This document shows positions 6,378-53,141 of a stretch of DNA of 57,053 nt, in pieces. A model generated the notes under the pieces. It had not been told where the DNA came from and searched no databases. It saw nothing but the letters and a program-made list of their open reading frames with translations. The position numbers were made by a program, and so were the translations under genes. Positions within the stretch are counted from its first letter, which is position 1. Each line of letters opens with the position of its first letter. The stretch is from a virus (Duplodnaviria > Caudoviricetes). Location of the stretch: positions 1 through 57,053 of IMG/VR virus record IMGVR_UViG_3300035148_000223. The stretch is one strand, 5' to 3'.

Positions 6378-6703
6378 GCGGTCGGCTCCGAGACGAGCGT
6401 GTACATCCAGACGCCTTTCGAGACAAGGTCGCGCTCGATGCCGTAGCCTTGCTGCTTCAACTCGAAGATGCGCGCCCCGTAACGGTAGCAGATGCCGTTC
6501 AGCACGACGTTCGTCGCCGGTCCCTCGCGGAGCCTCGCGAGGACGCGGTCCTTGGCGGTCGCGAGTCGCGAGGCTTCGTCGGCTTGCTGCTCGGCATGGG
6601 TCTGCCAGACGGTCTGCCGCTCCGCTGGCGTGGGGAGGTCGGCGGGCCGGGTGACGGTGTAGCCGTCCTCGGCCAGACACGAGAAGAGGTCTGTCTGGTT
6701 CAC
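6374..6703 (-). CDS. Winged-helix DNA-binding protein
   Basis: RVLARL...RYGARIFELKQQGYGI; TAGGAGGACCC RBS, GTG start. Confidence 0.65.
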   Translation of the reverse strand: MNQTDLFSCLAEDGYTVTRPADLPTPAERQTVWQTHAEQQADEASRLATAKDRVLARLREGPATNVVLNGICYRYGARIFELKQQGYGIERDLVSKGVWMYTLVSEPTA

Positions 6704-7533
6704 TTGGGTCCTCCTAGCGCGCGACGCTGACTCGGGCCGGAGAGGGACCACATGCTCGCGCGCTCGCGCAAGCGGTCGTAGACGGCCATCCCGAACGCCG
6801 CCGTCATCGCCTTCGGCACCTCGGACGCCTCGGTCTCGGCCGGGATGTTGAGGACGAAGATGGTTGGGCGGTTGTTCTTCTGGCGCGCATCGAGCAGGGC
6901 GCGGAAGAACTCCTGCTGCTTGTCGGTCGTCGGCGTCTTCGTCAACTCGTCGATCACGAGGACGTCGTAGGTGGCGAGAATGTCGAGCAGTTCGTACTCG
7001 GTCTCGCCGTGGTCGTCGTCGCGGTGGCCGAAGGTCGCATTCCACCGCATCCAGATCACCTTCGCGTCGGTGTAGAGTCCGGTCTCGGTGCCTTTCTCCA
7101 GTGACCCGCGCAGCATGGCGATGGCCAGCCCGGACTTGCCGGTGCCGTTCGGGCCAAACAGCACGACGTCTGGCCGTTTGTCGCGCGGCTTGGCGAGCCA
7201 TTCACCCCCGCGCGCGGCCAGCGTCGGCTTGAGCAGGTCGCTCTTGTACGACGAGAGGGACCATGTGAGGCAGGCTTCCGGCACGCCCGCCTTGCGGAGC
7301 CGCTCGAAGAACACGCCATCGACAGACGGGGGGCCGCTGGGCCAGAGTTCGCGAAGCTGGCTGGCCGAGAGAACCTCGTCGGCCCGCTTGCTGGCGCGTT
7401 TGCGTGCGCCCGCCGGACAGAGGCAGCGCACGACGAGGAAGGTGCCGTTGAAGTCCTGCACGCGCAGCCAGCCGTCTGTGCAGTGCGGACATTCGCGGCC
7501 GACGTGATCGGCCGAGATGGCGGTGTAGCTCAT
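6700..7533 (-). CDS. DnaC/IstB-like helicase loader ATPase
   Basis: N-terminal CPHC...CLC zinc motif; Walker A GPNGTGKS; Walker B VLVIDEL; YDRLRE. Confidence 0.88.
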   Translation of the reverse strand: MSYTAISADHVGRECPHCTDGWLRVQDFNGTFLVVRCLCPAGARKRASKRADEVLSASQLRELWPSGPPSVDGVFFERLRKAGVPEACLTWSLSSYKSDLLKPTLAARGGEWLAKPRDKRPDVVLFGPNGTGKSGLAIAMLRGSLEKGTETGLYTDAKVIWMRWNATFGHRDDDHGETEYELLDILATYDVLVIDELTKTPTTDKQQEFFRALLDARQKNNRPTIFVLNIPAETEASEVPKAMTAAFGMAVYDRLRERASMWSLSGPSQRRALGGPK

Positions 7534-8282
7534 TCGTCCTCCATGAGAATCTGGGGCGGGGGCGCGCTCAGAACGTGCTTCCGATTGCGCGCCTCGGTCT
7601 GCCGCCGCAGGTCGTCGGCGTTCTGGGGCTTCTGCTGGGCGGCGAGTTTGTTCCAGCATGACGCGAGGATGGCCATGTCCTTCCCGCTCTGCTGGATGAA
7701 GCGGTCGTGGCTGTCGAAGAGCCGGGGGAGCATCGCGACGACGGCGTCGTACCCGTGCTGCTGAATCAGCCGCTTGGCGTGGGCGGCGTCCTTGCCGCTG
7801 TAGTGGGGCTTGGTTCCCACTTCTGCCCGGAAGAGCTTTTCGTGTTCCGAGAGCAGGGCCTTGATGGTGTGGGCGTTCCCCGTACGTACTGATGGATCTT
7901 GTGACGGATCTACTGACGGATCGGGTGACACCCGTGTCACCCCAGAGGTGACAGGTACGTCACCCCTAGTGGTCTCCGACGTCACCCCCAGATGTTGTGG
8001 GGTGTCAGATTGGCACCCCAAGAGATGAAGCCGCCAGACGGTCGGGAACCGGCTCGTCGCGGGCTTGTCCACCGCGATATAGCCTGCCGTTTCAAGGTCG
8101 CGCAGGCATCGTTGTACTGACCGCACGCTGATGTCGCAATCGGTCGCGATGGTCTTGACCGACGGATAGGAGCTTCGCCCTTGGTCGTTCGCGCAATCGG
8201 CCAGCTTGAGGAGAACGAGTCGGTGGGACGCCGAGGCGAGGCCCCGGACGTCCCACACGGCGGTCATGTAGCGGATGCTCAC
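7530..8282 (-). CDS. Replication initiator protein (N-terminal winged HTH)
   Basis: LVLLKLADCAND...SYPSVKTIATDCDISVRSVQRCLRDLETAGYI; immediately upstream of the DnaC-like gene. Confidence 0.82.
   Translation of the reverse strand: MSIRYMTAVWDVRGLASASHRLVLLKLADCANDQGRSSYPSVKTIATDCDISVRSVQRCLRDLETAGYIAVDKPATSRFPTVWRLHLLGCQSDTPQHLGVTSETTRGDVPVTSGVTRVSPDPSVDPSQDPSVRTGNAHTIKALLSEHEKLFRAEVGTKPHYSGKDAAHAKRLIQQHGYDAVVAMLPRLFDSHDRFIQQSGKDMAILASCWNKLAAQQKPQNADDLRRQTEARNRKHVLSAPPPQILMEDE
7925..8020. repeat. Iteron-like GTCACCCC/GGTGACA repeats inside the initiator gene (candidate origin)
   Basis: GGTGACACCCGTGTCACCC, GGTGACA, CGTCACCCC (twice), GGGGTGTCA and GGCACCCC cluster in the initiator linker, as in lambdoid origins. 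Confidence 0.5.
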
Positions 8283-9169
8283 TTGGCCCTCGTCACGAAC
8301 GTCGAGTCCTTCATCGCGCGCAGGCCCGTGACGTTGAGGTCCTTCTGCTGGCTCCGGGCCAGCGCGTCGAGGAGCTTGGACACGGGCGCGACCATCTCCA
8401 GCGTCGTGAGGCGCACGTCCGCCTCGGTCGCGAAGCGGGAGAGGTATTTCTGGATGACCTGCCCCGTGGGGTGGGCCTTCAACTGCGGCGACATGGACCG
8501 GAGCATTTCGGCCGCGACGCACGCGAGGATGAAGCTGTTGGGGTCATCGACCACGGCGCTCCACGTCGTACGCGTGTATTCGCCGTCCACCTTGCCGCCC
8601 GCTTCTGGCAGGGCCACGGGCTTGACGTTCAGCGGAGCCTCGGCCACCGACGCGGCCTGCTCTTTCAGTGCCGCCTTGACGGACTTGTCGGTGGTCGCCT
8701 TGGCGGCGGCGGCGAGTGCGGCCAGTTCTACGCGCCGCTTCTCGGCCGCTTCCGCCTCGGCCTTGCGCCGGGCCTCTGCCAACTCCCGCTCGCGCTCCTC
8801 GGCCACGCGCGCGTCGTATGCCGTGATGCTGCGGTTGCAGAGTTCTTTCTCGGACTTCGCGGGGTCAAGGAACGAGTCGCGCGTCTGGCTGATGATGGCG
8901 ACGACGTTCTTCGCCGGGTCCAGCATCTTCTTGAACGTGGCCTCGACGAGCTTGATCATCGACTGCGCGTCGCGGTAGCGCAGGGCCACCGTCTCGCGCA
9001 TCTTGGGCGTGGAGATGGGGTAGTAGACGCGGCCATCGGGTCCGGGGACCAACGCGGGCAGCGCGCTGTCGTGGGTGAACGTCGTGAACGCCTTCACGAG
9101 TTCCTCGGGCGGACGCGTGTCGATGGTGGTGACGGTCGGTGCCGCCGCAGAGCTAGACGTCTTAGCCAT
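8279..9169 (-). CDS. Coiled-coil protein in the recombination module
   Basis: GGAGGACCC RBS; long Glu/Ala/Arg-rich coiled coil. Confidence 0.7.
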   Translation of the reverse strand: MAKTSSSAAAPTVTTIDTRPPEELVKAFTTFTHDSALPALVPGPDGRVYYPISTPKMRETVALRYRDAQSMIKLVEATFKKMLDPAKNVVAIISQTRDSFLDPAKSEKELCNRSITAYDARVAEERERELAEARRKAEAEAAEKRRVELAALAAAAKATTDKSVKAALKEQAASVAEAPLNVKPVALPEAGGKVDGEYTRTTWSAVVDDPNSFILACVAAEMLRSMSPQLKAHPTGQVIQKYLSRFATEADVRLTTLEMVAPVSKLLDALARSQQKDLNVTGLRAMKDSTFVTRAK

Positions 9170-9773
9170 TGTGGGTCCTCCAGTACGATTCGAGCCGAGA
9201 AAGAAACACAGTATAGTCTTCCGGGTCTTCGTATTCACGCACGATGAGTTGGCCGTCGCGCAGATAGACCCCTAGCCGCCTGCGGGGCAGCGAGCCACGG
9301 TAGGGCGCGAGGAGGTCGTAGGCGGCGAGTTGCACGCCGTGATGCTTCGCGGGCGCGCACGTCTTGATGTCCAGCACGACTTCCCCCGCGTAGCGCGAGG
9401 TCGTGAGGATGCCGATGCGGTCCACGATGCCCGCGACACGTAGGTCGTCGCGGTAGAGGGGCGTCTCGATATGCGTGAAGTGCGGGCGGTTGACGGCCTT
9501 CCAGACCGCCCACTGGCGCAGGTAGCGTTGGTCCTCGGCGCTGGCCGAGGCGATGATGCGCCGCTGGTTCTGCTCGCTGGCAAGGTCCATCTTCACGGTC
9601 AGCTTGTGGATGCGCGTGCCGCGCTCGGCGGGACGCCCGTCCGACAGGAACTCCAGTTGGTCCTTGACCGTCTTCGGCACCGAAAGCATGGTGACGTGTG
9701 GGACGCGCACGCCCTCGAAGGTGAAGGCGTGCGCGGTCGCGTCAAAGCACAGGGGAGAGGGTCCGCGTGTCAT
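9162..9773 (-). CDS. PD-(D/E)XK exonuclease (RecB/Cas4-like fold)
   Basis: ERGTRIH, IETPLY, AGIVDRI, VLDIKT and QLAAY motifs. Confidence 0.85.
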   Translation of the reverse strand: MTRGPSPLCFDATAHAFTFEGVRVPHVTMLSVPKTVKDQLEFLSDGRPAERGTRIHKLTVKMDLASEQNQRRIIASASAEDQRYLRQWAVWKAVNRPHFTHIETPLYRDDLRVAGIVDRIGILTTSRYAGEVVLDIKTCAPAKHHGVQLAAYDLLAPYRGSLPRRRLGVYLRDGQLIVREYEDPEDYTVFLSRLESYWRTHNG

Positions 9774-10696
9774 TCGCCGGGCCGTTTCTTCGAGGCGAGC
9801 CACCCCAGCACGTCCTCGAAGTAGATGCTGGGCAGGTCGGCCGAGTGATCGACGTTGTACTTGAGCTTGATGTGTTTCTTCACGTCGTCGGGGTCACGGC
9901 CCGCCTCTTGGAGCTTGACCCACAGGAAATTGCGCTGCTTCTGGCTGATGGGATGCGGAGCCGAGGCGACCGGCTTGTCGCTCTTCCACTTGTCGGCGTT
10001 CGGGCTGTGCGGGGCCACCCGAATCTCCTGCCACTTCGGCGTCACGTCCACGCGCCGCCAGACGGCTTGCTCTTCGTTCTTGACGACGGCGATGACTCGG
10101 ATGCAGTTCGCCTTGATGAAGCGGTCCACGAACCGGCGGTCCCAGCACTCCGAGGCGATGCCGAGGTCCTTGCAGCACCGCATCAGCGCGTTGGACTTGA
10201 TCACTTCGAGCGCGGTCGCCTTCGAGACGCGCTTGTTGCTCGGGTTGTATTCGGCCTCGCCCCACGCGACGGCGCGCACGAGGTCATGCACGAGCAGCGC
10301 CCACTGCTGCATCAGCGTGGTGCCGTTGTCGTCCATGATGGGCAGGTTCAGGTTCTTCAGCGACCAGCCGCCGCTGCCGAAGACCGCTGTCAGTCTGCGG
10401 CGATACTCGACCTGCGGGAAGTAGATTTCCCCCGTGGGCAGGATGTCGATCAGGTCCGGGTCCACCGGGGCCGTGAGCGCCTTGTGCTGCTTCTCGGTGA
10501 ACGGTTCCTTGCCCCACGGGTAGCCGATGTAGGGCGCGGACGTGAGGGCAATCGGCTCGCTCGGGGTGGGCGGCGGCGGCGCACTGATGACCGTGATGAC
10601 GCCGTGGTCGCCGTGTGGCGCGCCGACGAGCGCGCGGGGTTCTACGCGCCGGGCGAGAGCGGTGGTGCGCGCAGGGGTCTTTTTCTTCGTCTTCAT
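9770..10696 (-). CDS. Mgm101/Rad52-family single-strand annealing protein
   Basis: IDILPTGEIYFPQVEYRRRLTAVFGSGGW...SNALMRCCKDLGIASECWD matches the Mgm101 core. Confidence 0.85.
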   Translation of the reverse strand: MKTKKKTPARTTALARRVEPRALVGAPHGDHGVITVISAPPPPTPSEPIALTSAPYIGYPWGKEPFTEKQHKALTAPVDPDLIDILPTGEIYFPQVEYRRRLTAVFGSGGWSLKNLNLPIMDDNGTTLMQQWALLVHDLVRAVAWGEAEYNPSNKRVSKATALEVIKSNALMRCCKDLGIASECWDRRFVDRFIKANCIRVIAVVKNEEQAVWRRVDVTPKWQEIRVAPHSPNADKWKSDKPVASAPHPISQKQRNFLWVKLQEAGRDPDDVKKHIKLKYNVDHSADLPSIYFEDVLGWLASKKRPGE

Positions 10697-10832
10697 GGGT
10701 CCTCCGTTTGCGTTTCGGGAAAAGAGCGGGTAGGATGGCCGTGGGTGCGGGTCCTCCAACTCTTACCCACTTCGGGCCTGACCACTGAACCTCCTGCCGG
10801 AGACCCAGCGTCAGGCCCGTTGCTTGTACGGG

Positions 10833-22115: not shown

Positions 22116-22319
22116 CTACCGCTTGCGAGCCGGGGTGAACTCATCGGCGATGGCGACGCCCGCGTCAGCCAGCGCCTTCACGAGCGCGTCGCGCAAGCCG
22201 CGCGCTTTGTCGTCGTCCCCGAGAATCTTGACGGGGACGAGGATGTCGCCCTTGCCGGGCAGGGCGAACTCGATGCAGCGGTTGAAGCAGGGCATAGCGA
22301 TGAGCGACGTCTTCTTCAT
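22116..22319 (-). CDS. First gene of the leftward early operon, hypothetical
   Basis: AAGGAGG RBS. Confidence 0.6.
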   Translation of the reverse strand: MKKTSLIAMPCFNRCIEFALPGKGDILVPVKILGDDDKARGLRDALVKALADAGVAIADEFTPARKR

Positions 22320-24085: not shown

Positions 24086-24851
24086 GAAGACCTCTGACCC
24101 GGTGAAGAAGCAGCGCGTCGTGAAGGCCCCGGTGGACCCGCCGGAGAAGCCGCCCACCCGCTCGCTCGCGGAATTGGGCATCGAGCGGTTCGTCTCGGCC
24201 ACGGTGCATCGCGACGTCCTGAAGAACGCGCCCTACAACCCGCGCGTCATCAACGAGGACGAGCGTCGTCGCCTGAAGAAGGGCATCGAAAAGGTCGGCG
24301 TGGTCGCCCCGGTGACGTGGAATCTCCGCACGGGCAATCTGGTCGGGGGCCATCAGCGCGTCAGCATCCTCGATACGCTCGCCGGGACGAAGGACTACAC
24401 GCTCACGGTGTCGCAGATTGACGTGGACGAGAAGCGCGAGAAGGAAATCAACCTGCTCCTGAACAACGTCGCCGCGCAAGGCCAGTGGGACGCGGCGGGG
24501 CTGGAAGACCTCTTGCGGACGCCGGACTTGGACATCGAGGCCACGGGGTTCAACGCGGCAGACGTCTTTCGGATGTTCGGCGCGGAGAGCCTGTCGCCGG
24601 AAGCCCTGAAGGACATGTCGGAGCGCCTCGACAAGATCAAAGAGGCCTTCGACGGTGCGCCCGAGAAGCGGGGCAACGCCTTCCCAGACGACTTCTACTT
24701 TGTGGTGGTGTTTCGGGACTATGAAGCGCGGGCCGAGTTCGCCGCCAAACTCGGCCTCGACGACAACCGCTATCAGGACGGCCGGTTGCTGCTGGCGTTG
24801 CTCACCGAGAAGGCTCCGGCACCACCCGCACCCCCGCCTGACGTCCTTTGA
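24078..24851 (+). CDS. ParB/Srx N-terminal domain protein
   Basis: APYNPRVI...LKKGIEKVGVVAPVTWN..TGNLVGGHQRV...EKEINLLLN. Confidence 0.85.
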   Translation: MAKKTSDPVKKQRVVKAPVDPPEKPPTRSLAELGIERFVSATVHRDVLKNAPYNPRVINEDERRRLKKGIEKVGVVAPVTWNLRTGNLVGGHQRVSILDTLAGTKDYTLTVSQIDVDEKREKEINLLLNNVAAQGQWDAAGLEDLLRTPDLDIEATGFNAADVFRMFGAESLSPEALKDMSERLDKIKEAFDGAPEKRGNAFPDDFYFVVVFRDYEARAEFAAKLGLDDNRYQDGRLLLALLTEKAPAPPAPPPDVL

Positions 24852-25119
24852 CCGGGAACGTGGTCGGCGACGGATTCGCGAAGTCGAGGAAGTAGGCCAG
24901 CTTGCGCTCGCCCTCCACGACCGCCCACCGCTTCCGCACCTTCGTCACGATGACCGAGACCGCCTCTGGGGAGCCGAGCTTGTAGAGAATCAGCTCATCC
25001 CCCGGCGTCACTCGCTCCAGCACGGGGTCCGGCCGTTGCCGATACCGCCGTTCACTGACCTTCACCCCGTCCAGAATCCGCTCGAAGTAATACGCGTGTA
25101 AGCCTGCGGCGACTCTCAT
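24802..25119 (-). CDS. ASCH/PUA-like domain protein
   Basis: LHAYYFERILDGVKVSERR...GDELILY; AGGAGG RBS; the only minus-strand gene I call in the late arm. Confidence 0.65.
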   Translation of the reverse strand: MRVAAGLHAYYFERILDGVKVSERRYRQRPDPVLERVTPGDELILYKLGSPEAVSVIVTKVRKRWAVVEGERKLAYFLDFANPSPTTFPVKGRQAGVRVVPEPSR

Positions 25120-25261
25120 CTGTCCAGACCTCCTATGTCTTGGATGTGCCTTATGCACAGGACATCCTACCTGCCCCTCTGGGGTCCAGTCCAGTAAATT
25201 GACCTGCCCTGTCCTCTGCCCAGACCCATCCTGCCAGCCCTCTTCTGTGTAGACTGCCTGC

Positions 25262-25789
25262 ATGCCCGAGACCGCAGACACCACGCCCGTCCCGCGCGCC
25301 ACCTACGGCCGCAAGTCCAAGCTCACCCCTGACGTCCTGAAGCGCATCACCGATGCCCTCAAGTCAGGGAACTACCGCGATACCGCCGCCGCCTACGCAG
25401 GCATCGGCGTCTCCACCCTCGCCCTCTGGATGCAGAAGGGCCGTGCCGCCATCGACCGCATCAACACCGAAAAGACCCGCACCATCGGCAAAGGCAAGAA
25501 CGGCCGCACGATTGAACCCAAGCCCACCGCGCAGGAACAACCCTACGTGGACCTCGTGGACGCCGTAAAAGGGGCTGAGTCGGAGGCGGAAGCGCGCATG
25601 GTCATGGTCGTCCAGAAGGCGGCTATCGGCGGGGAATGGACCGCCGCGATGACCTATCTGGAGCGGAAGTTCCCCGAGAAGTGGGGACGCAAGGATCGGC
25701 TCGCGCTCGACGTGGATCTGAAGAAACTCTCGACCGAAGAGTTGGAAACCATCGAGGCGATCATGGCGAAGGCGCGGACAGAGGCCTAG
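25262..25789 (+). CDS. terS: Terminase small subunit
   Basis: GRKSKLTP...AAAYAGIGVSTL HTH; WTAAMTYLERKFPEKWGR; DLKKLSTEEL. Confidence 0.8.
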   Translation: MPETADTTPVPRATYGRKSKLTPDVLKRITDALKSGNYRDTAAAYAGIGVSTLALWMQKGRAAIDRINTEKTRTIGKGKNGRTIEPKPTAQEQPYVDLVDAVKGAESEAEARMVMVVQKAAIGGEWTAAMTYLERKFPEKWGRKDRLALDVDLKKLSTEELETIEAIMAKARTEA

Positions 25790-25924
25790 CCCGGCAGTTC
25801 CCGCTCGACATGGACAAGGCAGAAAAAGTAGACTGGCCCAGCCGGTGAGGCGGGGTGTGCCTGTCCTCTCTCCTACCCGTCGGTCCCGAACGGGGAGCAA
25901 TTCGGGACGCGCTCTGGAGGACCC

Positions 25925-26041
25925 ATGTGGACCGGCTTCAATTCCCTGACAGACCTCTTTGCCGCGATGGCCGTGGCGTTCTTCGTGGGCGCGCTGCTGG
26001 GCGCATGGCTGGCCAGCCGTGAAGAGTCGGAGGACCGCTGA
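25925..26041 (+). CDS. Small membrane peptide (38 aa)
   Basis: GGAGG RBS; LFAAMAVAFFVGALLGAWL; TGATG coupling. Confidence 0.5.
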   Translation: MWTGFNSLTDLFAAMAVAFFVGALLGAWLASREESEDR

Positions 26042-26664
26042 TGGCCAGAGACATGCTGCTGTACGGGTTCAACGCCGCCGACGACATGGCGGACTTCGAC
26101 GCGTGGCTGAACGAGAACCCGGACCTGCACAAGTTCGTGCCGGACTACCACCGGCTCCAGATTGAGAAGTGGCTCTTCGACAAGCGCGCGACAATGGGGC
26201 CACGCATTATGGACGTGGGCGTAGACAATCCCCGGCGGTGGCTGGGGCCTGACTACTTCACGTTCGGGGAAGGGGGCGAAGACGTCCGGGGGGATCTCGT
26301 CTCCTTCCCCTTCACCGAGAACGACCTCGACACCATCATCTGCACAGAGGTCTTGGAGCATTGTGCGGACCCGTTCACGGCGTGCCGCAACATGCACCGC
26401 GCCCTCAAGCCCGGCGGGCGGCTCTTCGTCACGTCGCCGTTCTTCTGGCCGTGGCACGGGACGCCCCAGTACGCAGACTACTGGCGGTTCACCGCGCAAG
26501 GCTGGGAGGCGCTCCTGAAGCCGTTTGCACGAGTAGACATCTGGGCGTGCGCGTGGACGCCCGAGGGCCGGGTGTTCTACGACTTCATGCGGCGGTTCGA
26601 GTGCATGGGCATGAACGCCCTGACGGTCGCGACCACGGGCTACTGCTGCGAGGCCGTGAAGTGA
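26041..26664 (+). CDS. Class I SAM-dependent methyltransferase (small-molecule/glycan type)
   Basis: IMDVG, DTIICTEVLEH, RALKPGG, PFFWPWH and DYWRFT motifs. Confidence 0.85.
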   Translation: MARDMLLYGFNAADDMADFDAWLNENPDLHKFVPDYHRLQIEKWLFDKRATMGPRIMDVGVDNPRRWLGPDYFTFGEGGEDVRGDLVSFPFTENDLDTIICTEVLEHCADPFTACRNMHRALKPGGRLFVTSPFFWPWHGTPQYADYWRFTAQGWEALLKPFARVDIWACAWTPEGRVFYDFMRRFECMGMNALTVATTGYCCEAVK

Positions 26665-27182
26665 CGGTGGGCAAGCACACCTACGGCGCGGAACACGTCC
26701 GCATCGACTGGCCACAAGCCGAGGTGAGTATCGGGGCCTTCTGCTCTATCGCCTCGCCCGTCTCGATCATGGCGGGCGGGAATCACTATCTGGATCGCGG
26801 GACCACGTTCCCCTTCGGCCACCGGGCGCAAGAGGTCTTCCCGTTCCCCAAGGACGACCAGCCGACCACGCGCGGCCCTGTCCGCATCGGGAATGACGTC
26901 TGGATCGGCGCGCACGCCAGCATCATGTCCGGCGTCACGATTGGCGACGGGGCGGTGATCGCGGCCTACGCGCATGTGGCGTCCCATGTGAAGCCCTATG
27001 CCGTCGTGGGCGGCAATCCGGCAGCGGTCTTGTTCTTTCGCCATCCGCCCGAGACGGTGCGACGCCTGCTCGACATGCGGTGGTGGGACTTGCCGGACGC
27101 TGTGATCGCGGACATCGTGCCGTGGCTGATGGCCCGAGACCTCACGCCCTTGTTCGAGTGGTGGAAGGAGCGCACCGCATGA
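26661..27182 (+). CDS. Hexapeptide-repeat O-acetyltransferase (CatB/Vat-like)
   Basis: IGAFCSIA, GNH, IGNDVWIG, GVTIGDGAVIAA, PYAVVGGNPA and WWD motifs. Confidence 0.9.
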   Translation: MTVGKHTYGAEHVRIDWPQAEVSIGAFCSIASPVSIMAGGNHYLDRGTTFPFGHRAQEVFPFPKDDQPTTRGPVRIGNDVWIGAHASIMSGVTIGDGAVIAAYAHVASHVKPYAVVGGNPAAVLFFRHPPETVRRLLDMRWWDLPDAVIADIVPWLMARDLTPLFEWWKERTA

Positions 27183-27391
27183 CCGCGCAGGAGAAGGCCA
27201 ACGCCCTACGGGCAGGCATGGAACAGACGATGCTGCCCATCGTGATTCCCGGCGCGTCCGACGTGGCCCTGCTGCGCCCGACGCGGTTCGACTTCGGCCG
27301 ACACAAGGACCCCGAGGACACGCGCGTCTACGTGCGCGTCATGCTCGAAGTCGTCTTGGTCGATGACCCCCTGATCGTCACGCCCAACTAG
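27179..27391 (+). CDS. Hypothetical protein
   Basis: AAGGAG RBS; ATGA coupling. Confidence 0.55.
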   Translation: MTAQEKANALRAGMEQTMLPIVIPGASDVALLRPTRFDFGRHKDPEDTRVYVRVMLEVVLVDDPLIVTPN

Positions 27392-27400
27392 AGGTCTGCC

Positions 27401-27835
27401 ATGAACCGACGCGACTTCCTGTCGTCGATTGCCGCCGCCTACGGCATCACGCTCGTTCCGCTCACGGTCTTGCCCGATGGCCACGCCGACTACGTCGCGG
27501 TCGCGGAGCAGATCAACGAGGCCGCGAAGCCCACGCGCACGCTGACCCTGCCGATCTCCCTGCTCGACGCCGAGGACGCCGTGGTCGTCACGGCCCCCGT
27601 GGCGTTCACCGTCTACGAGGAGCCGGGCGACGTCCTGCGCTTGGTCGGCAAGGAACGCGGTGGGGTGACATGGGAAGCCGTGCCGCCCGGCCGCGCGATT
27701 CACCAGATCGTGTGCGACATCCATCTGCCGGAGCGGCAGATCGTCAAGCGACTCCGCTTCCCGTGGTACGGCGGGCCGATCTACACGAACGGCGGCAACA
27801 TCACCGTGCAAGACCTCAAGGTGACCCTCGCATGA
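27401..27835 (+). CDS. Protein with twin-arginine (Tat)-like N-terminus
   Basis: MNRRDFLSSIAAAYG; C-terminal TNGGNITV resembles the protein at 54282-54698. Confidence 0.6.
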   Translation: MNRRDFLSSIAAAYGITLVPLTVLPDGHADYVAVAEQINEAAKPTRTLTLPISLLDAEDAVVVTAPVAFTVYEEPGDVLRLVGKERGGVTWEAVPPGRAIHQIVCDIHLPERQIVKRLRFPWYGGPIYTNGGNITVQDLKVTLA

Positions 27836-27969
27836 ACGACGACACCACGCCGGGCCTGACGGCCCTGACCGGACTGTTCTTCAGGGCAGCGGTCTTCACC
27901 GTGTCCGTCGCCTCATTCGTCTCGGCCATCGTGTTCCTGCGGTGGGCCGTGCGGGCGCTGCTGCGCTAG
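27832..27969 (+). CDS. Small membrane protein
   Basis: One long hydrophobic helix; ATGA coupling. Confidence 0.5.
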   Translation: MNDDTTPGLTALTGLFFRAAVFTVSVASFVSAIVFLRWAVRALLR

Positions 27970-27973
27970 GGCC

Positions 27974-28558
27974 ATGCTGCGCTTCCGCGTGGTCGGGCCG
28001 AGGAAGACCCCTCGGATTGAGCTACGGGCGGACGATGACGTGCTGTTTACCGTCCCCGGCACGGCCCTGATCGACTTCAGCATCGAGCTTCGGCAGGACA
28101 CGCAAGAGGTCTGGTCCATGGGGGCGCGCGTTCCGCAGACCGTGAAGACGGGCCTGCAATCGGCCCTGCTCAGGATGACCCTGTTTGGCCCGGCCCTCGA
28201 CGAGGACCGGGCGCTCGCGCGCTGCATCGACCTGCTGTTTCAGAAGTATGGGCAGGAGATGACGCGGCGCGCCGGGGCGCGCGAGTCCGACGTGGTCTGC
28301 CTGACCGTGTTCGGCATGTACGACGACGAGGCGATTGCGCCCGTGGTCGGGGTGGCCCAGAACGACGCCAAGCCCGGAGAGACCGTGCGGGTGCAACTCG
28401 CCAGCATCACGCCGGGGACGCTCGCAGAGGTCTTTGCGCGCGAATCCACCGCCTACCCGTGGCCTGCGTCCACGCGGCCACCGGCCCGCGCCCCGAAGTC
28501 TCCCGTGACCACCTTCGGCGGGACACGCCCGCCACTGGCAGACCCGAATGACCTCTGA
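27974..28558 (+). CDS. Hypothetical protein with tail-tube-like and capsid-cement-like segments
   Basis: FSIELRQDTQEVWSMG versus tail tube YSIELDADIQDASALG; VVGVAQNDAKPGE versus cement VLGVLQNKPLAGE. Confidence 0.6.
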   Translation: MLRFRVVGPRKTPRIELRADDDVLFTVPGTALIDFSIELRQDTQEVWSMGARVPQTVKTGLQSALLRMTLFGPALDEDRALARCIDLLFQKYGQEMTRRAGARESDVVCLTVFGMYDDEAIAPVVGVAQNDAKPGETVRVQLASITPGTLAEVFARESTAYPWPASTRPPARAPKSPVTTFGGTRPPLADPNDL

Positions 28559-28793
28559 CCGTTCCTGCTGGACCTGCGCCTATCAGCGCAAGGGCGGGCA
28601 TCTGACGTTCCTCGGCATCTGCGGCTGGTTCGCCGCGAACGGCCGCGAGCCGAAAGAGATTACCCCCGCTATCGTGGACGTCGGCTGCAAGTTCCATGAG
28701 CCACGCGCCCAGCGGTCTGCCCACAAGGACGAGGTCTTCGTGGAGGGGCAACCCGTGGGTGAGTACTTTACGGAGGGGATGAGCGATGTCTGA
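28548..28793 (+). CDS. Cys-rich hypothetical protein
   Basis: CWTC...C...C motif. Confidence 0.5.
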   Translation: MTSDRSCWTCAYQRKGGHLTFLGICGWFAANGREPKEITPAIVDVGCKFHEPRAQRSAHKDEVFVEGQPVGEYFTEGMSDV

Positions 28794-29064
28794 CGACCTC
28801 CTCGACGCGGTGAAGGCGTTTGTTGAAACCTCGCGGGCGGCTGGCACGCTCACAAGCTGCGTGTACGCCAAGAACGGCACCAACACGAGACTGCTGTCGC
28901 ACGCGGAGATTGCGGGCCTCGTGTCCGAAGTGGAGCGGTTGCGCCAGCGCCACGCGGAGGCGGTGGAGGCGGCGTGGAGAGAGGGCTTCAACTGCTGGCC
29001 GCTACACGGGTCTGATGGGCAGGCCGCATGGCTGGCGTCCGAGGCGAGGAAGGGGCTGACATGA
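28786..29064 (+). CDS. Hypothetical protein
   Basis: GGAGG RBS; LVSEVERLR motif common in phage ORFs. Confidence 0.55.
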   Translation: MSDDLLDAVKAFVETSRAAGTLTSCVYAKNGTNTRLLSHAEIAGLVSEVERLRQRHAEAVEAAWREGFNCWPLHGSDGQAAWLASEARKGLT

Positions 29065-29351
29065 ACTTCTCAAGGCCCTGCGCGACGCCCGGCTGCGTGT
29101 CGCTCGCCCAGCCCGGACAGACCCACTGCCCCGTGCATCGCCCCGTGCTTGCGCCCGACCTGCCCCGCTACTGCAAGGGGTTCCGCCGCTGGCTGCATCG
29201 CCCGACGCGGCGCGTCATCGTGGTGCCGTCCGCATGGTCGCGGTTCACGTATCAGGGGCAGACCTATGTCCACGAACCCCGCGCCCTGCTCTCGGCCCCG
29301 ATGCTCGACGACGGGTATCGCTACCCCTCGAAGAATTGGGAGCGCGCGTGA
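29061..29351 (+). CDS. Zinc-binding protein resembling an HNH N-terminus
   Basis: RPCATPGC...HCPVH. Confidence 0.5.
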   Translation: MNFSRPCATPGCVSLAQPGQTHCPVHRPVLAPDLPRYCKGFRRWLHRPTRRVIVVPSAWSRFTYQGQTYVHEPRALLSAPMLDDGYRYPSKNWERA

Positions 29352-29566
29352 TCTGTCCGCACTGCGGGAAGACGCTGCCCTCGCGGCAGGCCCAATGGAT
29401 GCGCGAGCGTGTCGCCCAAGGGTTCTGCGCGCGGTGCAACGAGCCGCGTGGCGAAGGGCGGGAAGGCTGGTATTGTCTGCGGTGTGGGATTTTTCGCGCG
29501 GCGCATGCGAAGACGGTCTACAAACGCAAGCGGAGGAAACCCCATGTCCACCATCGACCGCGTTGA
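29348..29566 (+). CDS. Basic zinc-finger protein
   Basis: CPHC, CARC and CLRC motifs; GTGA coupling. Confidence 0.5.
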   Translation: MICPHCGKTLPSRQAQWMRERVAQGFCARCNEPRGEGREGWYCLRCGIFRAAHAKTVYKRKRRKPHVHHRPR

Positions 29567-29744
29567 CGTCTTTCGTCGGCTGCAAGCTCTCCCGCCGGAG
29601 TGTCCGCACGATGCCAAAGTGGGCCACCGCCTGAAGCAGGCCGGACGGCCAGACCGCTTCGAGACGGTCCTGCCGACGCTGCTCGCGAAATACTCCGCGA
29701 TCCGTCTGCACGAGTATGACGAAACGCACGCCCGATCCGTCTGA
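29544..29744 (+). CDS. Hypothetical protein
   Basis: GGAGGA RBS. Confidence 0.5.
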   Translation: MSTIDRVDVFRRLQALPPECPHDAKVGHRLKQAGRPDRFETVLPTLLAKYSAIRLHEYDETHARSV

Positions 29745-29916
29745 CCCGCGTGTCACCTTTCGCGAGTTCTGGGACTGGACCCAGCAGAGCAGCCTGCGCG
29801 ACCTCGCGCGCTTGGTGCCGCGCCCCTGCGGCGGGCGCGCTATCCTGTTCAACATTCCCGGTCGCCCGGTCACGGTCTGCTTCGACCGGCACGGTTACAT
29901 CGTAGGCCATGAATAA
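29716..29916 (+). CDS. Hypothetical protein
   Basis: 66 aa ORF immediately before terL. Confidence 0.45.
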   Translation: MTKRTPDPSDPRVTFREFWDWTQQSSLRDLARLVPRPCGGRAILFNIPGRPVTVCFDRHGYIVGHE

Positions 29917-29922
29917 CCCGAC

Positions 29923-31464
29923 ATGCTGCGCGTGAACTACGACGACATCGTCGCGGAACTGCGCGCCCGTGGGCGACGGCCCACCGTGGAGCCAGACGCG
30001 AAGTTCGCCAAGTATCGCGGCAAGCCCGTGGAGTTCGTGCAAGAGGTCTTGGGGTACTCGCTCTGGAGCAAGCAGCAAGCCGTCTTGCTCTCCACGACGA
30101 GCAACCGCCGGACGGCCGTACATTCCTGCCACGACTCCGGCAAGTCCTTCATCCTCGCCGCGACCGTCGCCTACTGGCTGTCCGTCTATCCCCCCGGCGA
30201 AGCGTTCGTCGTGACGACAGCCCCGACGTTCAATCAGGTGCGCGCGATTCTCTGGCGCGAAATCAACTCCATGCACGCCGCCGGGCATCTGCCCGGCACC
30301 TGCTCACAGGTGGAGTGGAGCATCGACGGCAAGCTCGTCGCGATGGGCCGCAAGCCGGACGACTACTCCCCCGGCGCGTTTCAGGGCATCCACGCCTTGC
30401 GCGTGCTGGTCGTCATCGACGAGGCCTGCGCGGTGGCCGCGTCCATCTGGGACGCCGCCGAAACGCTCATCACCAACGACGAGTCGGCCATTGTCGCCAT
30501 CGGCAACCCGGACGATCCCGACTCCCGCTTCCGCACGGTCTGTGACCCCGGCTCCGGCTGGCACGTCATCCATATCGACGGCATGGAGACGCCGAACTTC
30601 ACCGACGAACCCGTGCCGGATCTCTTGCGGAAAGTCCTCTTGTCACGCATCTGGGCCGAGGAGCGCGCGAAGGCATGGGGCGAGGACAGCCCGATCTACA
30701 TCTCGAAGGTGCGCGGGCGCTTCCCCGACCAAGCCGAGTCCGGCCTGATTCCCGTGCGCTGGATCATGGCGGCGTTCAACCGCTACCGCGACACCCCCGG
30801 CAAGCCCGGCCTGCGCGTCTTGGGCGTGGACGTGGGCGGCGGCACGGGCAACGATAAGACCGTCATCTACCTGCGCGACGGCGACACGGCGCGCCTCGTC
30901 CATGAGGACAATACCGCCGACACGATGCTGACCGCCTCGCGCATCGCCTTCCTCCTGCGCGAACACCGGGCGTCGCTCGCCGTCATCGACTCGGCCGGGC
31001 TGGGGAAGGGCGTCTACGACCGCTGCCGCCAACTCGGTGTCCCGTCCCACCCCGTCAACGTGGGAGAGGGCTGCGACGATGACACCGCTCGCGCCCAATT
31101 CGAGAACAAGCGCGCCCACTTCTACTGGAGCCTGCGCGACCGCTTCGAGAAAGGCGAGTTGCGGCTGGACCCGACCGACGACATCGTGGAAGGCCAACTG
31201 CGCGCCACGCGCTACAAGCTCACCCCGCGCGGGCGCATCGCGATTGAATCGAAAGACGACATGGCCAAACGCGGCCTGCGCTCGCCCGATCACGCCGACG
31301 CACTCATGCTATGCTTTGCTCCGTCGGTGAACGCGGCTGCGCCCTTGTCCGGGGCGTTCGGGGGGCTATCGTTGGGGTCACGCGTGAGCGCGTGGGTGGA
31401 CCCGGCCAATGAGGACATCGACCCGGATGACCTCGACGCCGAGTCCTCCCGAGACCCATTCTAG
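29923..31464 (+). CDS. terL: Terminase large subunit
   Basis: Walker A SCHDSGKS; VVIDEA; IGNP; nuclease motifs LGVDVG, IDSAGLG and SPDHADALML. Confidence 0.95.
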   Translation: MLRVNYDDIVAELRARGRRPTVEPDAKFAKYRGKPVEFVQEVLGYSLWSKQQAVLLSTTSNRRTAVHSCHDSGKSFILAATVAYWLSVYPPGEAFVVTTAPTFNQVRAILWREINSMHAAGHLPGTCSQVEWSIDGKLVAMGRKPDDYSPGAFQGIHALRVLVVIDEACAVAASIWDAAETLITNDESAIVAIGNPDDPDSRFRTVCDPGSGWHVIHIDGMETPNFTDEPVPDLLRKVLLSRIWAEERAKAWGEDSPIYISKVRGRFPDQAESGLIPVRWIMAAFNRYRDTPGKPGLRVLGVDVGGGTGNDKTVIYLRDGDTARLVHEDNTADTMLTASRIAFLLREHRASLAVIDSAGLGKGVYDRCRQLGVPSHPVNVGEGCDDDTARAQFENKRAHFYWSLRDRFEKGELRLDPTDDIVEGQLRATRYKLTPRGRIAIESKDDMAKRGLRSPDHADALMLCFAPSVNAAAPLSGAFGGLSLGSRVSAWVDPANEDIDPDDLDAESSRDPF

Positions 31465-42607: not shown

Positions 42608-43666
42608 GTGAGGATCTTGTTCTGTAAGCCAGCCGCCGAGTTCAGCGTGTCCGACGTCGCCCGAGGGCTGCGCGCGGCCCTCGTCCGTCAAGGCCACGAC
42701 CTGCGCGACTACGACATGGGCAAGCGGCTGGCCTACCACTCGCGCGCGATGGGCGAGCTGTACGTCGAGCAGGTCTCGGCCGTGAGCAAGCAGGCCAGCG
42801 AGAACATCTTGATCGAGGCCATGTACCATCACGCCGACCTCGTCATCATCGTGTCCGCGCTGATTTACCACCCCGCCGCGCTCGTGCTGCTGCGAATGGC
42901 CCGTGTGCCGACCGTCGTCCTCCACACCGAATCGCCGTACTGCGACGACGATCAGGTCGAATGGGCAGCGGCCAACCCGGATGCGCTGCACTGCACGCAT
43001 GACGCCGCGAGCGCGCGGAAGCTCGGCTGGGCCTACGTCCCGCACTCCTACGATCCGAATATCCACAAGCCCTGCCGGGAAGAGATGGTGCTGGGCAGCG
43101 ACGGCACGCCGCGCATCGAGTGGGACAACGAGGCAGACCTCCAGTCCGACAAGGCCTGCGACGTCTGCTTCATCGGCACGGGCTGGCCGGAGCGCATCGC
43201 GTTCTTGGAGCAGGTCGATTGGACCGGCATCGACCTGCGGCTCTACGGTCTGTGGACGGCCCTGCGCGAGGACAGCCCCCTGCGGAAGTTCTATCGCGAA
43301 GGCTTGGTCCCGAACGAAGAGGCGGTGTCGTACTACCGTGCCGCGAAGATCAACATCAACGTGCATCGGGCCGATCCCACGGCGGAAAGCCTCAACCCGC
43401 GTGGCTTCGAGCTTCCGGCGTGCGGGGCGTTCACGCTGACCGACTATCGCAAGGAAGGCGTGGAGCTATTCGGGGACTCGATGCCGGTCTTCGAGACCCC
43501 GGCCGATCTGGAGCGATTGGTCAGGCACTATCTGGCCAACCCCGAAGAGCGGATGCGGTTGGCGCGGGCCGCATTCGACCGTGTCCGACCGTGCTTGTTC
43601 GACAACCGTGCCGTCTCGCTTATGAGCGCGGCGCAGGGCCGCTTTACGGCCACCAAAGGAGACTGA
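42608..43666 (+). CDS. CgeB-like GT-B glycosyltransferase
   Basis: TESPY, DVCFIGT...ER, YRAAKININVHR, LNPRGFELPACG and TDYR motifs. Confidence 0.85.
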   Translation: MRILFCKPAAEFSVSDVARGLRAALVRQGHDLRDYDMGKRLAYHSRAMGELYVEQVSAVSKQASENILIEAMYHHADLVIIVSALIYHPAALVLLRMARVPTVVLHTESPYCDDDQVEWAAANPDALHCTHDAASARKLGWAYVPHSYDPNIHKPCREEMVLGSDGTPRIEWDNEADLQSDKACDVCFIGTGWPERIAFLEQVDWTGIDLRLYGLWTALREDSPLRKFYREGLVPNEEAVSYYRAAKININVHRADPTAESLNPRGFELPACGAFTLTDYRKEGVELFGDSMPVFETPADLERLVRHYLANPEERMRLARAAFDRVRPCLFDNRAVSLMSAAQGRFTATKGD

Positions 43667-48195: not shown

Positions 48196-50010
48196 ATGGC
48201 GCTCACCGTCACCATCGGCGGCGTGACGAAGACGCCAGTCGCGATGACGCTCTCGTCGGCGCAGAACGAACGCGACCGCCTGACGCTCACGCTCGTCTCG
48301 GACACCGGGGCCAACATCCGCCCGAACATCGACGACGAAGTGCTGGTGGTCGAGGACAGCGTGACCATCTTCGGCGGCTCCGTCAAGACACCGGAACTGT
48401 CGGGCCTCGGCACCTCACCCACGGCCGTCTCCGCGCGGGCGTCCTGCCTCGACTACAACGAACTCGGCGACCGCATCGTCGTCGTCGGCCTGACCATCCC
48501 CACGGGGACGCTGAAGGCGGCGGCGACCGCGCTCTTGCCCTACCTGCCGGGCGTGTCGATTGACTCGTCGTGGACGTCCGACGGGCCGACACTGCCGGAG
48601 TTGGTCTATGACGGGCTGTACGCCGACGCGGCGCTGGAAGACCTCTCGACGCGCACCGGCTGGGTCCGCAACATCAACGCCACGAAAAAGCTCAAGTTCT
48701 GGACCCCCGGCACCATCGCGGCCCCGTGGAACGTCACCGATGGCGACGGCAACGTCGTCGGCGACCTCACGTCGGTTATCACGCGCAAGGACTACGCCAA
48801 CCGCATCATCGTGAAGTTCCTCGACGCGGCGATTTCCGCGTGGGGGTTCTTCGGCCCGAAGCAGGGCATGTCGTCCCTGCCCTCGGCCGGAGAGACCGTC
48901 ACGGTGGGCAGCAAGACCTACACATGGCGCGCGACGCTCGGCGCGCCTGCGAACGAGGTCCTGATCGGCGCGGACGTCAGTGCGTGCATCAGCAATCTGG
49001 CCTGCGCCATCGTGGAAGGCGACGGCAAAGGCCCGACCTACTCGACCGCCACCACGGCCAACACGCAGGTCATCGCGTGGCAAGCCGCGCCAGACCGCAT
49101 GACGGTCAAGGCCCAGACAGCGGGAGCCGCCGGAAACAATCTCGCGCTGACGACGAACTGCGCGAACTGGCGCTGCTACCACGAAGGCAACATCGAGTGG
49201 GGGCATCTGCAAGGGGGAGCCGACGAGGCCTTCCGGAACTCGGTGCAGGTCGATGCCGTGGCGCTCCAGCCGCCCGTCTACACGCGTATTGTCGAAGCCG
49301 CCAACGTCTACAACGTCACCGATGCGACGGCCATCGGCGAAGCCATCCTGACCGAGGCCACGGTCGTCATGGAGACCGTCCGGTACAAGACGCGCCGGTC
49401 GGGGCTGACCGTCGGGATGTCGCAGACGATTGCCTCGGCCAAGCGGCATGTGACGAGTGCGACGTTCCTCATCACGGCCATTGAGACGACATGGTCGCCC
49501 GGCGGGCTGGCGTGGCGCGACGTGACGGCCATCAAGGGCACCACGTATAGAAATACCTCTTGGCGTGAGCTGTACAAACAGTGGTCTGGCGCGAGCGGGA
49601 CCGCGCAGTCGGTCACGTACGGGGGCGTGGGCGGTGGTGGGTCTTCCCCGACCGCGCGCGTCTACACGCTGGGCGGGTCACGGTCGCTCTACGTTGCGCC
49701 GAACCCGAAGGCATGGACGCCAGTGCCGGAGTGGATACCGTTCAAGGCCCCGGCGGGCTTCTCCGCGCGGGTGCGCGTGTGGATGTGGGCGCGAAACGCG
49801 GGCATCACGGTCTCGGCCCGCGTGACGAGTGGGACGGATGGCATCACGTTCGGCACGGTGTCCGCATCGCTCGCGGACGTGACCGGGCAGACCGTGACAG
49901 AGCGCACGGCCGACTTCGTCGTCGAGGCCGACAAGTACTATCGGCTAGAGGTCTATCCAAGCTCTAACGGGGAGGGCGTCGGATGTCTCGGATATGTCGA
50001 GTCGCTGTAG
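48196..50010 (+). CDS. Tail tip/hub protein
   Basis: Follows the tape measure; IFGG.V and DYANRI motifs. Confidence 0.75.
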   Translation: MALTVTIGGVTKTPVAMTLSSAQNERDRLTLTLVSDTGANIRPNIDDEVLVVEDSVTIFGGSVKTPELSGLGTSPTAVSARASCLDYNELGDRIVVVGLTIPTGTLKAAATALLPYLPGVSIDSSWTSDGPTLPELVYDGLYADAALEDLSTRTGWVRNINATKKLKFWTPGTIAAPWNVTDGDGNVVGDLTSVITRKDYANRIIVKFLDAAISAWGFFGPKQGMSSLPSAGETVTVGSKTYTWRATLGAPANEVLIGADVSACISNLACAIVEGDGKGPTYSTATTANTQVIAWQAAPDRMTVKAQTAGAAGNNLALTTNCANWRCYHEGNIEWGHLQGGADEAFRNSVQVDAVALQPPVYTRIVEAANVYNVTDATAIGEAILTEATVVMETVRYKTRRSGLTVGMSQTIASAKRHVTSATFLITAIETTWSPGGLAWRDVTAIKGTTYRNTSWRELYKQWSGASGTAQSVTYGGVGGGGSSPTARVYTLGGSRSLYVAPNPKAWTPVPEWIPFKAPAGFSARVRVWMWARNAGITVSARVTSGTDGITFGTVSASLADVTGQTVTERTADFVVEADKYYRLEVYPSSNGEGVGCLGYVESL

Positions 50011-53000: not shown

Positions 53001-53141
53001 TACGCGGGGGCGTCGGAGGCCGGGATCGTGACGAGTTGCGCCGAACCCGTCCAGCCTCAGATTGACGCGCTGAAGCAGGAAGTCGCAGACCTGAAGGCAC
53101 AGGTCGCGGCCCTCATCGCACTACTCGGGGGGAGACAATGA
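49983..53141 (+). CDS. Tail fibre/receptor-binding protein with two CBM-like repeats, C-terminal coiled coil and N-terminal signal peptide
   Basis: GGGGAGG RBS; MSRICRVAVGLWFLSAVAASA|Q; ITA.KI repeats; QIDALKQEVADLKAQV. Confidence 0.8.
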   Translation: MSRICRVAVGLWFLSAVAASAQVELDVSKIRLGSAPCVILTGSGTPEGAVVGNVCDMYLRTNGTTFATIVYVKTDNGDNTGWVSAGGVTGSGTLNYLPKWTSTSAIGDSVIYESGTNLGLGTTTTTYKVTTGGTVAPATAYAYDLGAFTKKWLTLFAAELRVETLVAAEVQSTIGGRVVVAPTTQLTADLAAAATSISVKHNNLENGDFVRLESNGNVEWIKITQAPQGSGPYTHTVTRGLDSGGTGHDWSAGDALVTTGKAAGEGYIDLFSDRSAASSSVYGPTILGVARTNTTSYLDVAPRWAIGNLRGTYGYAADTYGAAFGDASKSWLTLDDTNGLRMGNGANVKVSITPLGSATFVGDGDGITNIDGGNIQTSSITANKILLNPGYSGAALNADPNFLDSTAWGAGINIVTGITDGKVGSNAMANTANNYLWGYSGNIPVDPSKMYRVRAWIRKTAGSGVDNTYLWMSFWQGDGTTAASPNDMYVSNCSPISTTPGTWTECVGDFGYGDATHPTPSNAKFMRVGYGLNNSATSSVIQMQDLRLEEMAPASLIVNGAITADKIAANTITASKMVVGQSGQYINIDPMLKDTSVWGSAGAGTFTINTLSGVPAGNEVIRSNANATAYVEDKNYYAIDETKTYRFRFWARGVGENGILYADLRQYADMSGTTCGTNGGRNPYDPNAVSVPDAWTEYSGTFGPGQWISGCTKFVKLDWLLNYGGTAGYMEIAYPRMEEMVTGELVVNGSITATDMNVSTLSAITANMGSLTSGSIVVGSSDKLWLNDSSDGALNIGGSTKASAPFRVTAAGALTATSGTIGGWTLNTQTLYSGTGSNSAGIHSGGTSTVRFFAGSATLDSAPFRVTQDGSLTATNASISGSVSAASGAVTIDGSGITIDNGSSGYNQVKWDDGSTIGSGSDVLNISADSQISLNVVSGNLKIDSGGIFTNYQRDLGTNSYRWHDLYMVGDIWWDSPPSTTADDWPMVWSPSIKALYYKSDAASCSYAGASEAGIVTSCAEPVQPQIDALKQEVADLKAQVAALIALLGGRQ

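Follow-up and report, generated by a model that had tools for sequence, protein, structure and literature searches.

The stretch of DNA analysed here (the window) is the whole of the IMG/VR virus record IMGVR_UViG_3300035148_000223 (Duplodnaviria; Caudoviricetes), a linear sequence of 57,053 bp that is about 70% complete and has a G+C content of 66%. Between its genes for the small and the large terminase subunit, terS and terL, lies the near-orphan open reading frame (ORF) ORF B (ORF 27974; positions 27974-28558, + strand; protein P0002 of 194 amino acids (aa)). We read ORF B as a candidate diverged and truncated derivative of a tail tube protein with an accessory role, and assign to this reading a probability of about 0.5.

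A first-pass annotation had described ORF B and its neighbour ORF A (ORF 27401; 27401-27835, + strand; protein P0001, 144 aa) as being built from fragments of the phage's own structural proteins: tail tube and capsid cement protein in ORF B and a minor tail protein in ORF A. Both ORFs and the sequence strings quoted from them are present between terS and terL. The description was found to be defensible for ORF B, but not for ORF A.

Resemblance of ORF B to the tail tube protein

The tail tube protein of the phage, P0003 (43668-44075, + strand; phrog_1407, E 6.3e-10), was used as the reference; its AF2 model (pLDDT 74.5) gave the monocin tube, lambda gpV and the SPP1 tube as the best Foldseek matches. 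When P0002 and its single homologue P0006 were compared by hhalign with an alignment of 22 tube homologues, aa 14-58 of ORF B (28013-28147, + strand) aligned to positions 11-54 with a probability of 73.7-75.9% (E 2.3-2.9e-5). The probability for the same pair against the tube protein alone was 20%. Compared singly with the tube alignment, P0002 gave 62.7% and P0006 18.4%, both in the same register.

None of 279 column shuffles reached the hhalign score (36.7 for the real profile, 20.2 for the best shuffle), and the reversed query and the reversed target scored 20.0 and 20.4, respectively. ORF B was the sole outlier among the 66 ORFs of the window when these were compared with the tube profile (33.6, the next ORF scoring 17.8). 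In the opposite direction, the P0002 profile gave the tube protein the highest score among 65 non-self ORFs.

HMMER searches gave the following rankings. The tube profile placed P0002 (9.9 bits, E 0.084) at the top of 2286 six-frame translation frames from 176 kb of phage DNA, after the five true tubes; the P0002 profile, run over 2286 frames, placed three tube proteins next after itself (E 0.13). The latter profile also ranked 20 of the 21 tube homologues, and the window's own tube protein, over all other ORFs of the window.

The alignment falls where the tube family is most strongly conserved, in a block that reads YSIELDADIQDxSALG...VK in the tube protein and FSIELRQDTQEVWSMG...VK in ORF B. 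There are 12 invariant or nearly invariant tube columns in aa 31-54, and P0002 has identical residues at 8 of them and conservative substitutions at 2; past aa 55 no invariant tube column could be aligned to P0002. The tube resemblance noted in the first-pass annotation is upheld at the profile level only, as a weak but reproducible similarity over aa 14-58; the single-sequence tests remained at chance (see below).

A language model and structure prediction were also consulted. In the ESM Atlas, ORF B adjoins unnamed viral clusters (0.93) and the three nearest Pfam-carrying clusters all belong to tail-tube families (0.91), values to be read against shuffled proteins, which reach 0.9 in 4-10% of cases and show agreement of all ten families in a third of the shuffles. 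In the Atlas's own model, aa ~10-125 of ORF B align to tube-protein clusters with TM 0.41-0.55. The AF2 model of P0002, built from a two-sequence alignment, had a pLDDT of 36.5 and is unusable as evidence; its low-confidence order of strands and helix is collinear with that of the tube model through the helix, which starts at 77 and 73, respectively, a difference equal to the alignment offset of 4. A complex prediction for the tube protein (22-row alignment) with aa 1-150 of P0002 gave scores of 0.03 and 0.01.

Taken together, these sequence comparisons suggest, at somewhat better than even odds, that the N-terminal domain of ORF B is tube-derived or has a tube-like fold. The match to the tube family profile covers aa 14-58 and not the whole domain, and the position of the gene, between terS and terL, is outside the tail module, with the tube gene 15 kb downstream. 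By these criteria ORF B does not qualify as a member of the tube family, nor does it qualify for the cement and RidA families discussed below. Searches of the terS-terL island against the rest of the window by blastn and tblastn returned noise only; since there is no similarity at the DNA level, any derivation from the tube gene would be ancient.

Cement-like hairpin of ORF B and N-terminus of ORF A

The best-conserved block between P0002 and P0006 is located elsewhere, at aa 120-161 (28331-28456, + strand), and resembles a hairpin of the capsid cement or decoration protein P0004 (37684-38070, + strand; PF09956, E 2.9e-9; phrog_673, E 5.8e-18). Six-frame searches of the window with PF09956 and phrog_673 gave two places only, the true cement gene and ORF B; the latter scored 14.9 bits with PF09956 (E 1.4e-3 per genome) and 15.5 bits with phrog_673 (E 3.7e-4 per genome). 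For the isolated proteins, PF09956 gave 14.3 bits for P0002 (E 0.053) and 14.8 bits for P0006 (E 0.038), and phrog_673 matched ORF B with E 0.015. The match covers positions 28-67 of the 103 positions of the PF09956 model, where the true cement protein also begins matching. At E<=10, PF09956 matched none of five other viral records.

Direct comparison of ORF B with the cement protein by BLASTP gave E 0.017 over 23 aa, and the Smith-Waterman score was reached by 44 of 2000 and 78 of 2000 shuffles. The hhalign probability was 1.7%, or 5.1% against a two-sequence cement alignment, and none of 127 shuffles reached the score of 22.2 (maximum 20.6).

The likeness to the Phage_cement_2 proteins (PF09956; phrog_673; P0004; ValentiniPuff gp55) consists of a hairpin of 26-40 aa, GVAQNDAKPGETVRV in comparison with GVLQNKPLAGEAAEV. 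Unlike these proteins, ORF B covers less than 40% of the domain and does not lie beside a capsid gene, whereas the true cement gene abuts the capsid gene at 38104. The cement resemblance, which had also been pointed out in the earlier annotation, holds in so far as ORF B is the sole second place in the window; its scores of 14-15 bits do not reach the PF09956 gathering cut-off of 24 bits. The findings are suggestive of a non-random, sub-threshold likeness of one hairpin and not of family membership.

The cement protein itself has one relative in the phage collection (locus L019), located at 27839-28216 of Microbacterium phage ValentiniPuff and 39.7% identical to P0004. This relative bears no annotation beyond 'hypothetical protein', and its gene immediately precedes the major capsid gene, the same synteny as in the window. 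No relatives of P0004 were found in the viral and genome contig scans.

The corresponding claim for ORF A was the similarity of its terminal TNGGNITV to TNGGDITI in the tail-region protein P0005 (54282-54698, + strand; phrog_644, E 7.2e-15). The score of this pair was reached by 118 of 2000 and 90 of 2000 shuffles. The hhalign score of ORF A against P0005 was 19.9, compared with a background of 19.8 and 18.7, and the segment aligned differs from the one claimed; a search of the window with phrog_644 gave a match only at 54282. The likeness of ORF A to the minor tail protein is therefore attributed to chance.

The consensus of twin-arginine (Tat) signal peptides is S/T-R-R-x-F-L-K. ORF A carries N-R-R-D-F-L-S at aa 2-8, in accordance with a motif of this type. 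After it come a moderately hydrophobic stretch (Kyte-Doolittle values peaking at 1.97 over aa 10-24) and, at aa 27-29, G-H-A, which no more than approximates an AxA-type cleavage site. On inspection, aa 1-29 (27401-27487, + strand) thus constitute a putative Tat signal peptide with RRDFL, h-region and GHA. The loose pattern RRx[FL][LIV] occurs within the first 20 aa of 2 of the 66 ORFs of the window. Tat-signal models from Pfam and NCBIfam matched neither P0001 nor its homologue P0007 at E<=1, although such short models are easily missed.

The RRDFL motif singled out by the first-pass annotation is therefore present by inspection, but has no support from hidden Markov models (HMMs), and ORF A is a candidate Tat substrate only. 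The remainder of the protein had no usable neighbour in Pfam, PHROG, the ESM Atlas, PADLOC or NCBIfam. On balance, ORF A is somewhat more likely than not to be exported and to have no relation to the minor tail protein.

Cassette layout, distribution and genome setting

ORF A, a 45-aa hydrophobic (membrane) peptide (27832-27969, + strand; Kyte-Doolittle 2.29) and ORF B form a translationally coupled cassette, as judged from their overlapping or abutting start and stop codons: the ATG of the membrane peptide overlaps the ORF A stop codon (ATGA), and ORF B starts 4 nt past the stop codon of the peptide. The G+C contents at the three codon positions (GC1/2/3) were 0.68/0.44/0.90 for 27401-27835 and 0.69/0.51/0.87 for 27974-28558, and resemble those of terL and the capsid genes; the antisense ORFs over ORF A and ORF B show the mirror pattern. 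The high GC3 and low GC2, as in terL and the capsid genes, together with the antisense mirror pattern, identify ORF A and ORF B as real genes of the + strand.

The ORFs next to the two genes are also on the + strand: GC3 was 0.94 for the membrane peptide and 0.90 for a 70-aa ORF directly 5' of the cassette (27179-27391), which has no Pfam or PHROG match. An 81-aa Cys-rich ORF of the same cassette (28548-28793, + strand) overlaps the ORF B stop codon; it has a CxxC ... C ... CxxH spacing and found no match in the Pfam, PHROG, PADLOC and NCBIfam scans. A promoter and terminator scan of 24800-30200 was at chance level, and the cassette is presumably co-transcribed with the late genes.

A search of 5.8 billion clusters yielded one relative per protein, P0007 for ORF A (87% identity) and P0006 for ORF B (46% identity). 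Both originate from a JGI contig of 2881 bp, which is probably shared by the two. By this comparison, ORF B evolves much faster than its neighbour ORF A. Scans of viral, metagenome and genome contigs returned no further relatives of ORF A or ORF B. When 1.84 billion representatives were scanned by HMMER with the ORF B pair, the one match apart from these two sequences was P0008, a repeat adhesin of 1686 aa; nine of its stretches were matched, and it was rejected as a repeat-inflated artefact.

Short contigs (150-380 bp) from three metagenome runs hold near-identical pieces of the ORF A/B region (DNA shares <=0.19); no RNA run was among the matching ones listed. In these contigs, non-synonymous variants of ORF B were found at aa 19-33 and none in aa 34-81 where covered, an observation that is weak owing to the low depth.

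At six loci with related terL genes (L002-L007; terL 33-38% identical), no match to the profiles A1 (P0002 plus P0006), A2 or A3 exceeded 7.3 bits. The records with related tubes (G001-G004) gave no match to the ORF B pair profile. The same four records, G001 being the record behind L008, have tubes 45-62% identical to P0003 and no match to the terL of the window. The records are fragments, and from these comparisons the tail and packaging modules look reshuffled among relatives.

The island bounded by terS (25262-25789, + strand; phrog_4102, E 1.5e-32) and terL (29923-31464, + strand; phrog_2, E 3.8e-31) is 4.1 kb long. Upstream of the cassette it contains a SAM-dependent methyltransferase gene (26041-26664, + strand; PF08241, E 5.8e-11) and a gene for a hexapeptide-repeat (XAT/Vat/CatB-like) acetyltransferase (26661-27182, + strand; PF00132, E 9.4e-13); beyond the Cys-rich ORF there are further small ORFs. 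The acetyltransferase is closest to the Vat/CatB-type xenobiotic acetyltransferases (NF000311, 123.7 bits, E 7.2e-36). It is regarded as a relative and not called a resistance gene because its score is far under the curated cut-offs, which are 300-350 bits (300 for NF000311). The 66-aa ORF directly 5' of terL (29716-29916, + strand) and a 67-aa ORF at 22116-22319 (- strand) form a possible paralogous pair, their mutual similarity having a phmmer E-value of 0.01 in the comparison of 73 ORFs.

The late operon occupies the right half of the window. In it, a Mu-type portal gene, a protease/scaffold gene and the cement gene precede the major capsid gene, which starts at 38104 and is followed by connector genes. 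A glycosyltransferase-like gene (42608-43666, + strand; PF13524, E 1.4e-24) stops 2 nt 5' of the tail tube gene; together with the methyltransferase and the acetyltransferase it suggests that virion proteins may be decorated with modified sugars. The tape-measure position 3' of the tube gene is taken by a 1101-aa ORF, with distal tail genes after it; this is a positional reading for which no family match was obtained.

The 1052-aa distal tail protein encoded at 49983-53141 carries the carbohydrate-binding domain PF02018. Two antisense frames within its gene (52181-52462 and 52475-52834, - strand) are mutually similar (phmmer E 3e-5), which points to a tandem repeat inside this protein. The leftward early region encodes a Mgm101/Rad52-type single-strand annealing protein (9770-10759, - strand; PF06420, E 1.4e-38), an exonuclease (8279-9238) and a DnaC-like helicase loader (6700-7659).

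Alternative readings and known systems

Several results weigh against a tube origin of ORF B. BLASTP of ORF B against the tube protein returned nothing at E<=100, and tblastn at E<=10 gave no match in the tube gene; the phmmer E-value of the pair was 0.11, and 14 listed non-self rows scored better in the all-against-all comparison of 73 ORFs. The Smith-Waterman score against the tube protein was reached by 8 of 2000 shuffles for P0002 and by 2 of 2000 for P0006. The broad tube family phrog_1407 did not match ORF B, the six-frame search of the window included, and a six-frame search with the tube profile at E<=10 gave the tube gene only. The similarity ends at aa 58, a forced hhalign extension having zero confidence. 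Foldseek of the P0002 AF2 model against PDB gave no match at E<=0.001 (TM<=0.26), and P0002 was not matched in a 77% complete record whose tube is 62% identical. The PADLOC anti-phage defence library gave no match for P0001, P0002, P0006 or P0007, a negative that has no bearing on function and says nothing about an anti-defence role.

The resemblances of ORF B could be due to chance or convergence, ORF B being an unrelated beta-rich orphan that shares generic strand-turn-strand patterns with tube and cement proteins, an explanation that we regard as possible, if on the unlikely side. In its favour, all single-sequence tests were at or near chance, and the HMMER scores of ~10 and ~15 bits are below every curated cut-off. 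Furthermore, aa 27-69 of ORF B also matched the repeated adhesin nine times, the cement-like stretch also matched the S1-type domain RNase_II_C_S1 (E 0.09), and ORF B has no confident fold. However, profile-profile comparison and language-model neighbours independently arrive at one fold class, P0002 stands well apart in the composition-matched nulls, and the matched segment is the best-conserved one in tube proteins; moreover, PF09956 and phrog_673 ring at no other non-cement site of the window, nor PF09956 in the five other viral records.

The evidence for tube-likeness would serve equally for a true minor structural or assembly protein, such as a second tube-fold subunit or a cap, initiator or chaperone of tube polymerisation. 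The gene is co-directional with the late genes, with no separate promoter or terminator above chance, and the retained segment would map to the region of ring-to-ring tube contacts (PMC12803255). We consider a structural role improbable: ORF B has methyltransferase, acetyltransferase and orphan genes around it and not the tail module, is absent from the fragmentary record with the 62%-identical tube, is 46% identical between two phages compared with 87% for its neighbour, and contains no detectable counterpart of the tube's conserved C-terminal half.

Another reading, to which we give similarly little credence, makes the structural likeness irrelevant: a Tat-exported ORF A, the membrane peptide and ORF B would act jointly on the cell envelope, with superinfection exclusion or lysis timing as conceivable tasks. 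The RRDFL motif, h-region and GHA of ORF A and the coupling of the three genes agree with it, as does a weak PADLOC match of the membrane peptide to a defence-associated membrane protein (PDLC01143, E 0.0082). Against this, ORF A has no Tat-signal HMM match, ORF B has neither a signal nor a membrane segment (maximum Kyte-Doolittle value 1.65), and Pfam, PHROG, PADLOC and NCBIfam showed no homology to known exclusion or lysis proteins.

Finally, aa 46-133 of ORF B matched positions 18-97 of the PDB chain 3lme_A, annotated as 'possible translation initiation inhibitor' (E 0.057), which counts against the tube reading and in favour of a RidA/YjgF-type (chorismate-mutase-like) domain. This E-value is borderline and was obtained for a single chain; no RidA/YjgF-type Pfam family (Ribonuc_L-PSP) matched P0002 or P0006 at E<=10, and the ESM Atlas neighbours are tube families and not RidA. 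Such a domain is very improbable.

If ORF B is a diverged tube derivative, as we favour, its N-terminal part would descend from, or be modelled on, the tail-tube fold and would be closest to the phage's own tube subfamily. It would have retained the most conserved tube block, a strand and the start of the long hairpin, and would have lost the C-terminal, ring-forming half, of which nothing conserved is recognisable; for the latter reason ORF B is probably not a tube subunit. In exchange it may have gained a longer helix, the weakly cement-like hairpin and a proline-rich acidic tail (28466-28555, + strand), whose end, PVTTFGGxRPPLADxxDL, is conserved between P0002 and P0006. Fast divergence, the accessory-gene setting and the lack of a recognisable ring-forming half argue against a regular tube subunit and favour a soluble look-alike.

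The data show that ORF B is a real gene, how its cassette is laid out, that it is a near-orphan and that it resembles the tube locally at the profile level; whole-domain homology, a non-structural role and a binding partner are inferred. A soluble look-alike would present the N-terminal strand-hairpin surface of the tube to a partner that normally binds the tube protein. One candidate for this partner is a host sensor that detects tube protein, with ORF B acting as a decoy or competitive inhibitor; another is the machinery of tube or tail assembly itself.

CapRel senses capsid protein, and the first-pass annotation had proposed decoys or inhibitors of sensors of structural proteins, or else poisons of the assembly of competing phages. 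By analogy with such systems, ORF B might be a decoy or inhibitor of a tube sensor, which we think rather unlikely. In its most specific and still more speculative form, the proposal is that ORF B is a homologous and not merely analogous mimic, a truncated, fast-evolving tube copy that keeps the strand-hairpin block read by sensors of the Avs16 or DSR2 type. Made with the late genes, it would sequester or jam the sensor or poison the tube assembly of co-infecting relatives, and the cement hairpin would turn it into a two-epitope decoy.

Bacterial immune sensors recognise conserved structural proteins of phages, and the tail-tube hairpin is among their targets (PMC12803255). If the tube reading is true, a gene derived from the phage's own tube in an accessory island would represent a simple evolutionary route to tube mimics, and stripped-down paralogues of virion proteins could be hunted by sequence in phage accessory islands. 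If the resemblance is only convergent, ORF A and ORF B are an ordinary orphan phage gene pair. The evidence for the homology on which this reading turns is weak and at the profile level. The novelty lies in a near-orphan, truncated, tube-like gene that shares a terS-terL accessory cassette with a putatively exported protein and a membrane peptide. A full-text search of the literature found no tail-tube paralogue used as a decoy, which is weak evidence that the idea is unpublished.

In comparison with the siphophage tube proteins (the P0003 subfamily; phrog_1407; monocin MttP, lambda gpV and SPP1 gp17.1), ORF B is alike in the profile similarity of aa 14-58, the collinear predicted order of strands and helix and the tube-family neighbours. 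It differs from them in the longer helix, the extra hairpin and the proline-rich tail, and in being a near-orphan with no match to the broad family.

As regards sensing, Avs16 is modelled as contacting a conserved beta-hairpin of the tube protein (PMC12803255). Tube protein activates the defence protein DSR2, whose inhibitor DSAD1, in the words of the accessible text of PMC10973363, 'mimics TTP to trap DSR2'. DSAD1 of phage SPbeta is described there as a functional mimic, and the same text claims no tube homology for it; in this it would differ from ORF B, to which it is likened by description only. The likeness is one of concept: DSAD1 is an accessory protein that occupies the tube-binding pocket of a defence sensor (PMC10973363, same text), and ORF B, if tube-derived, might engage such a partner through the strand and hairpin that it has retained.

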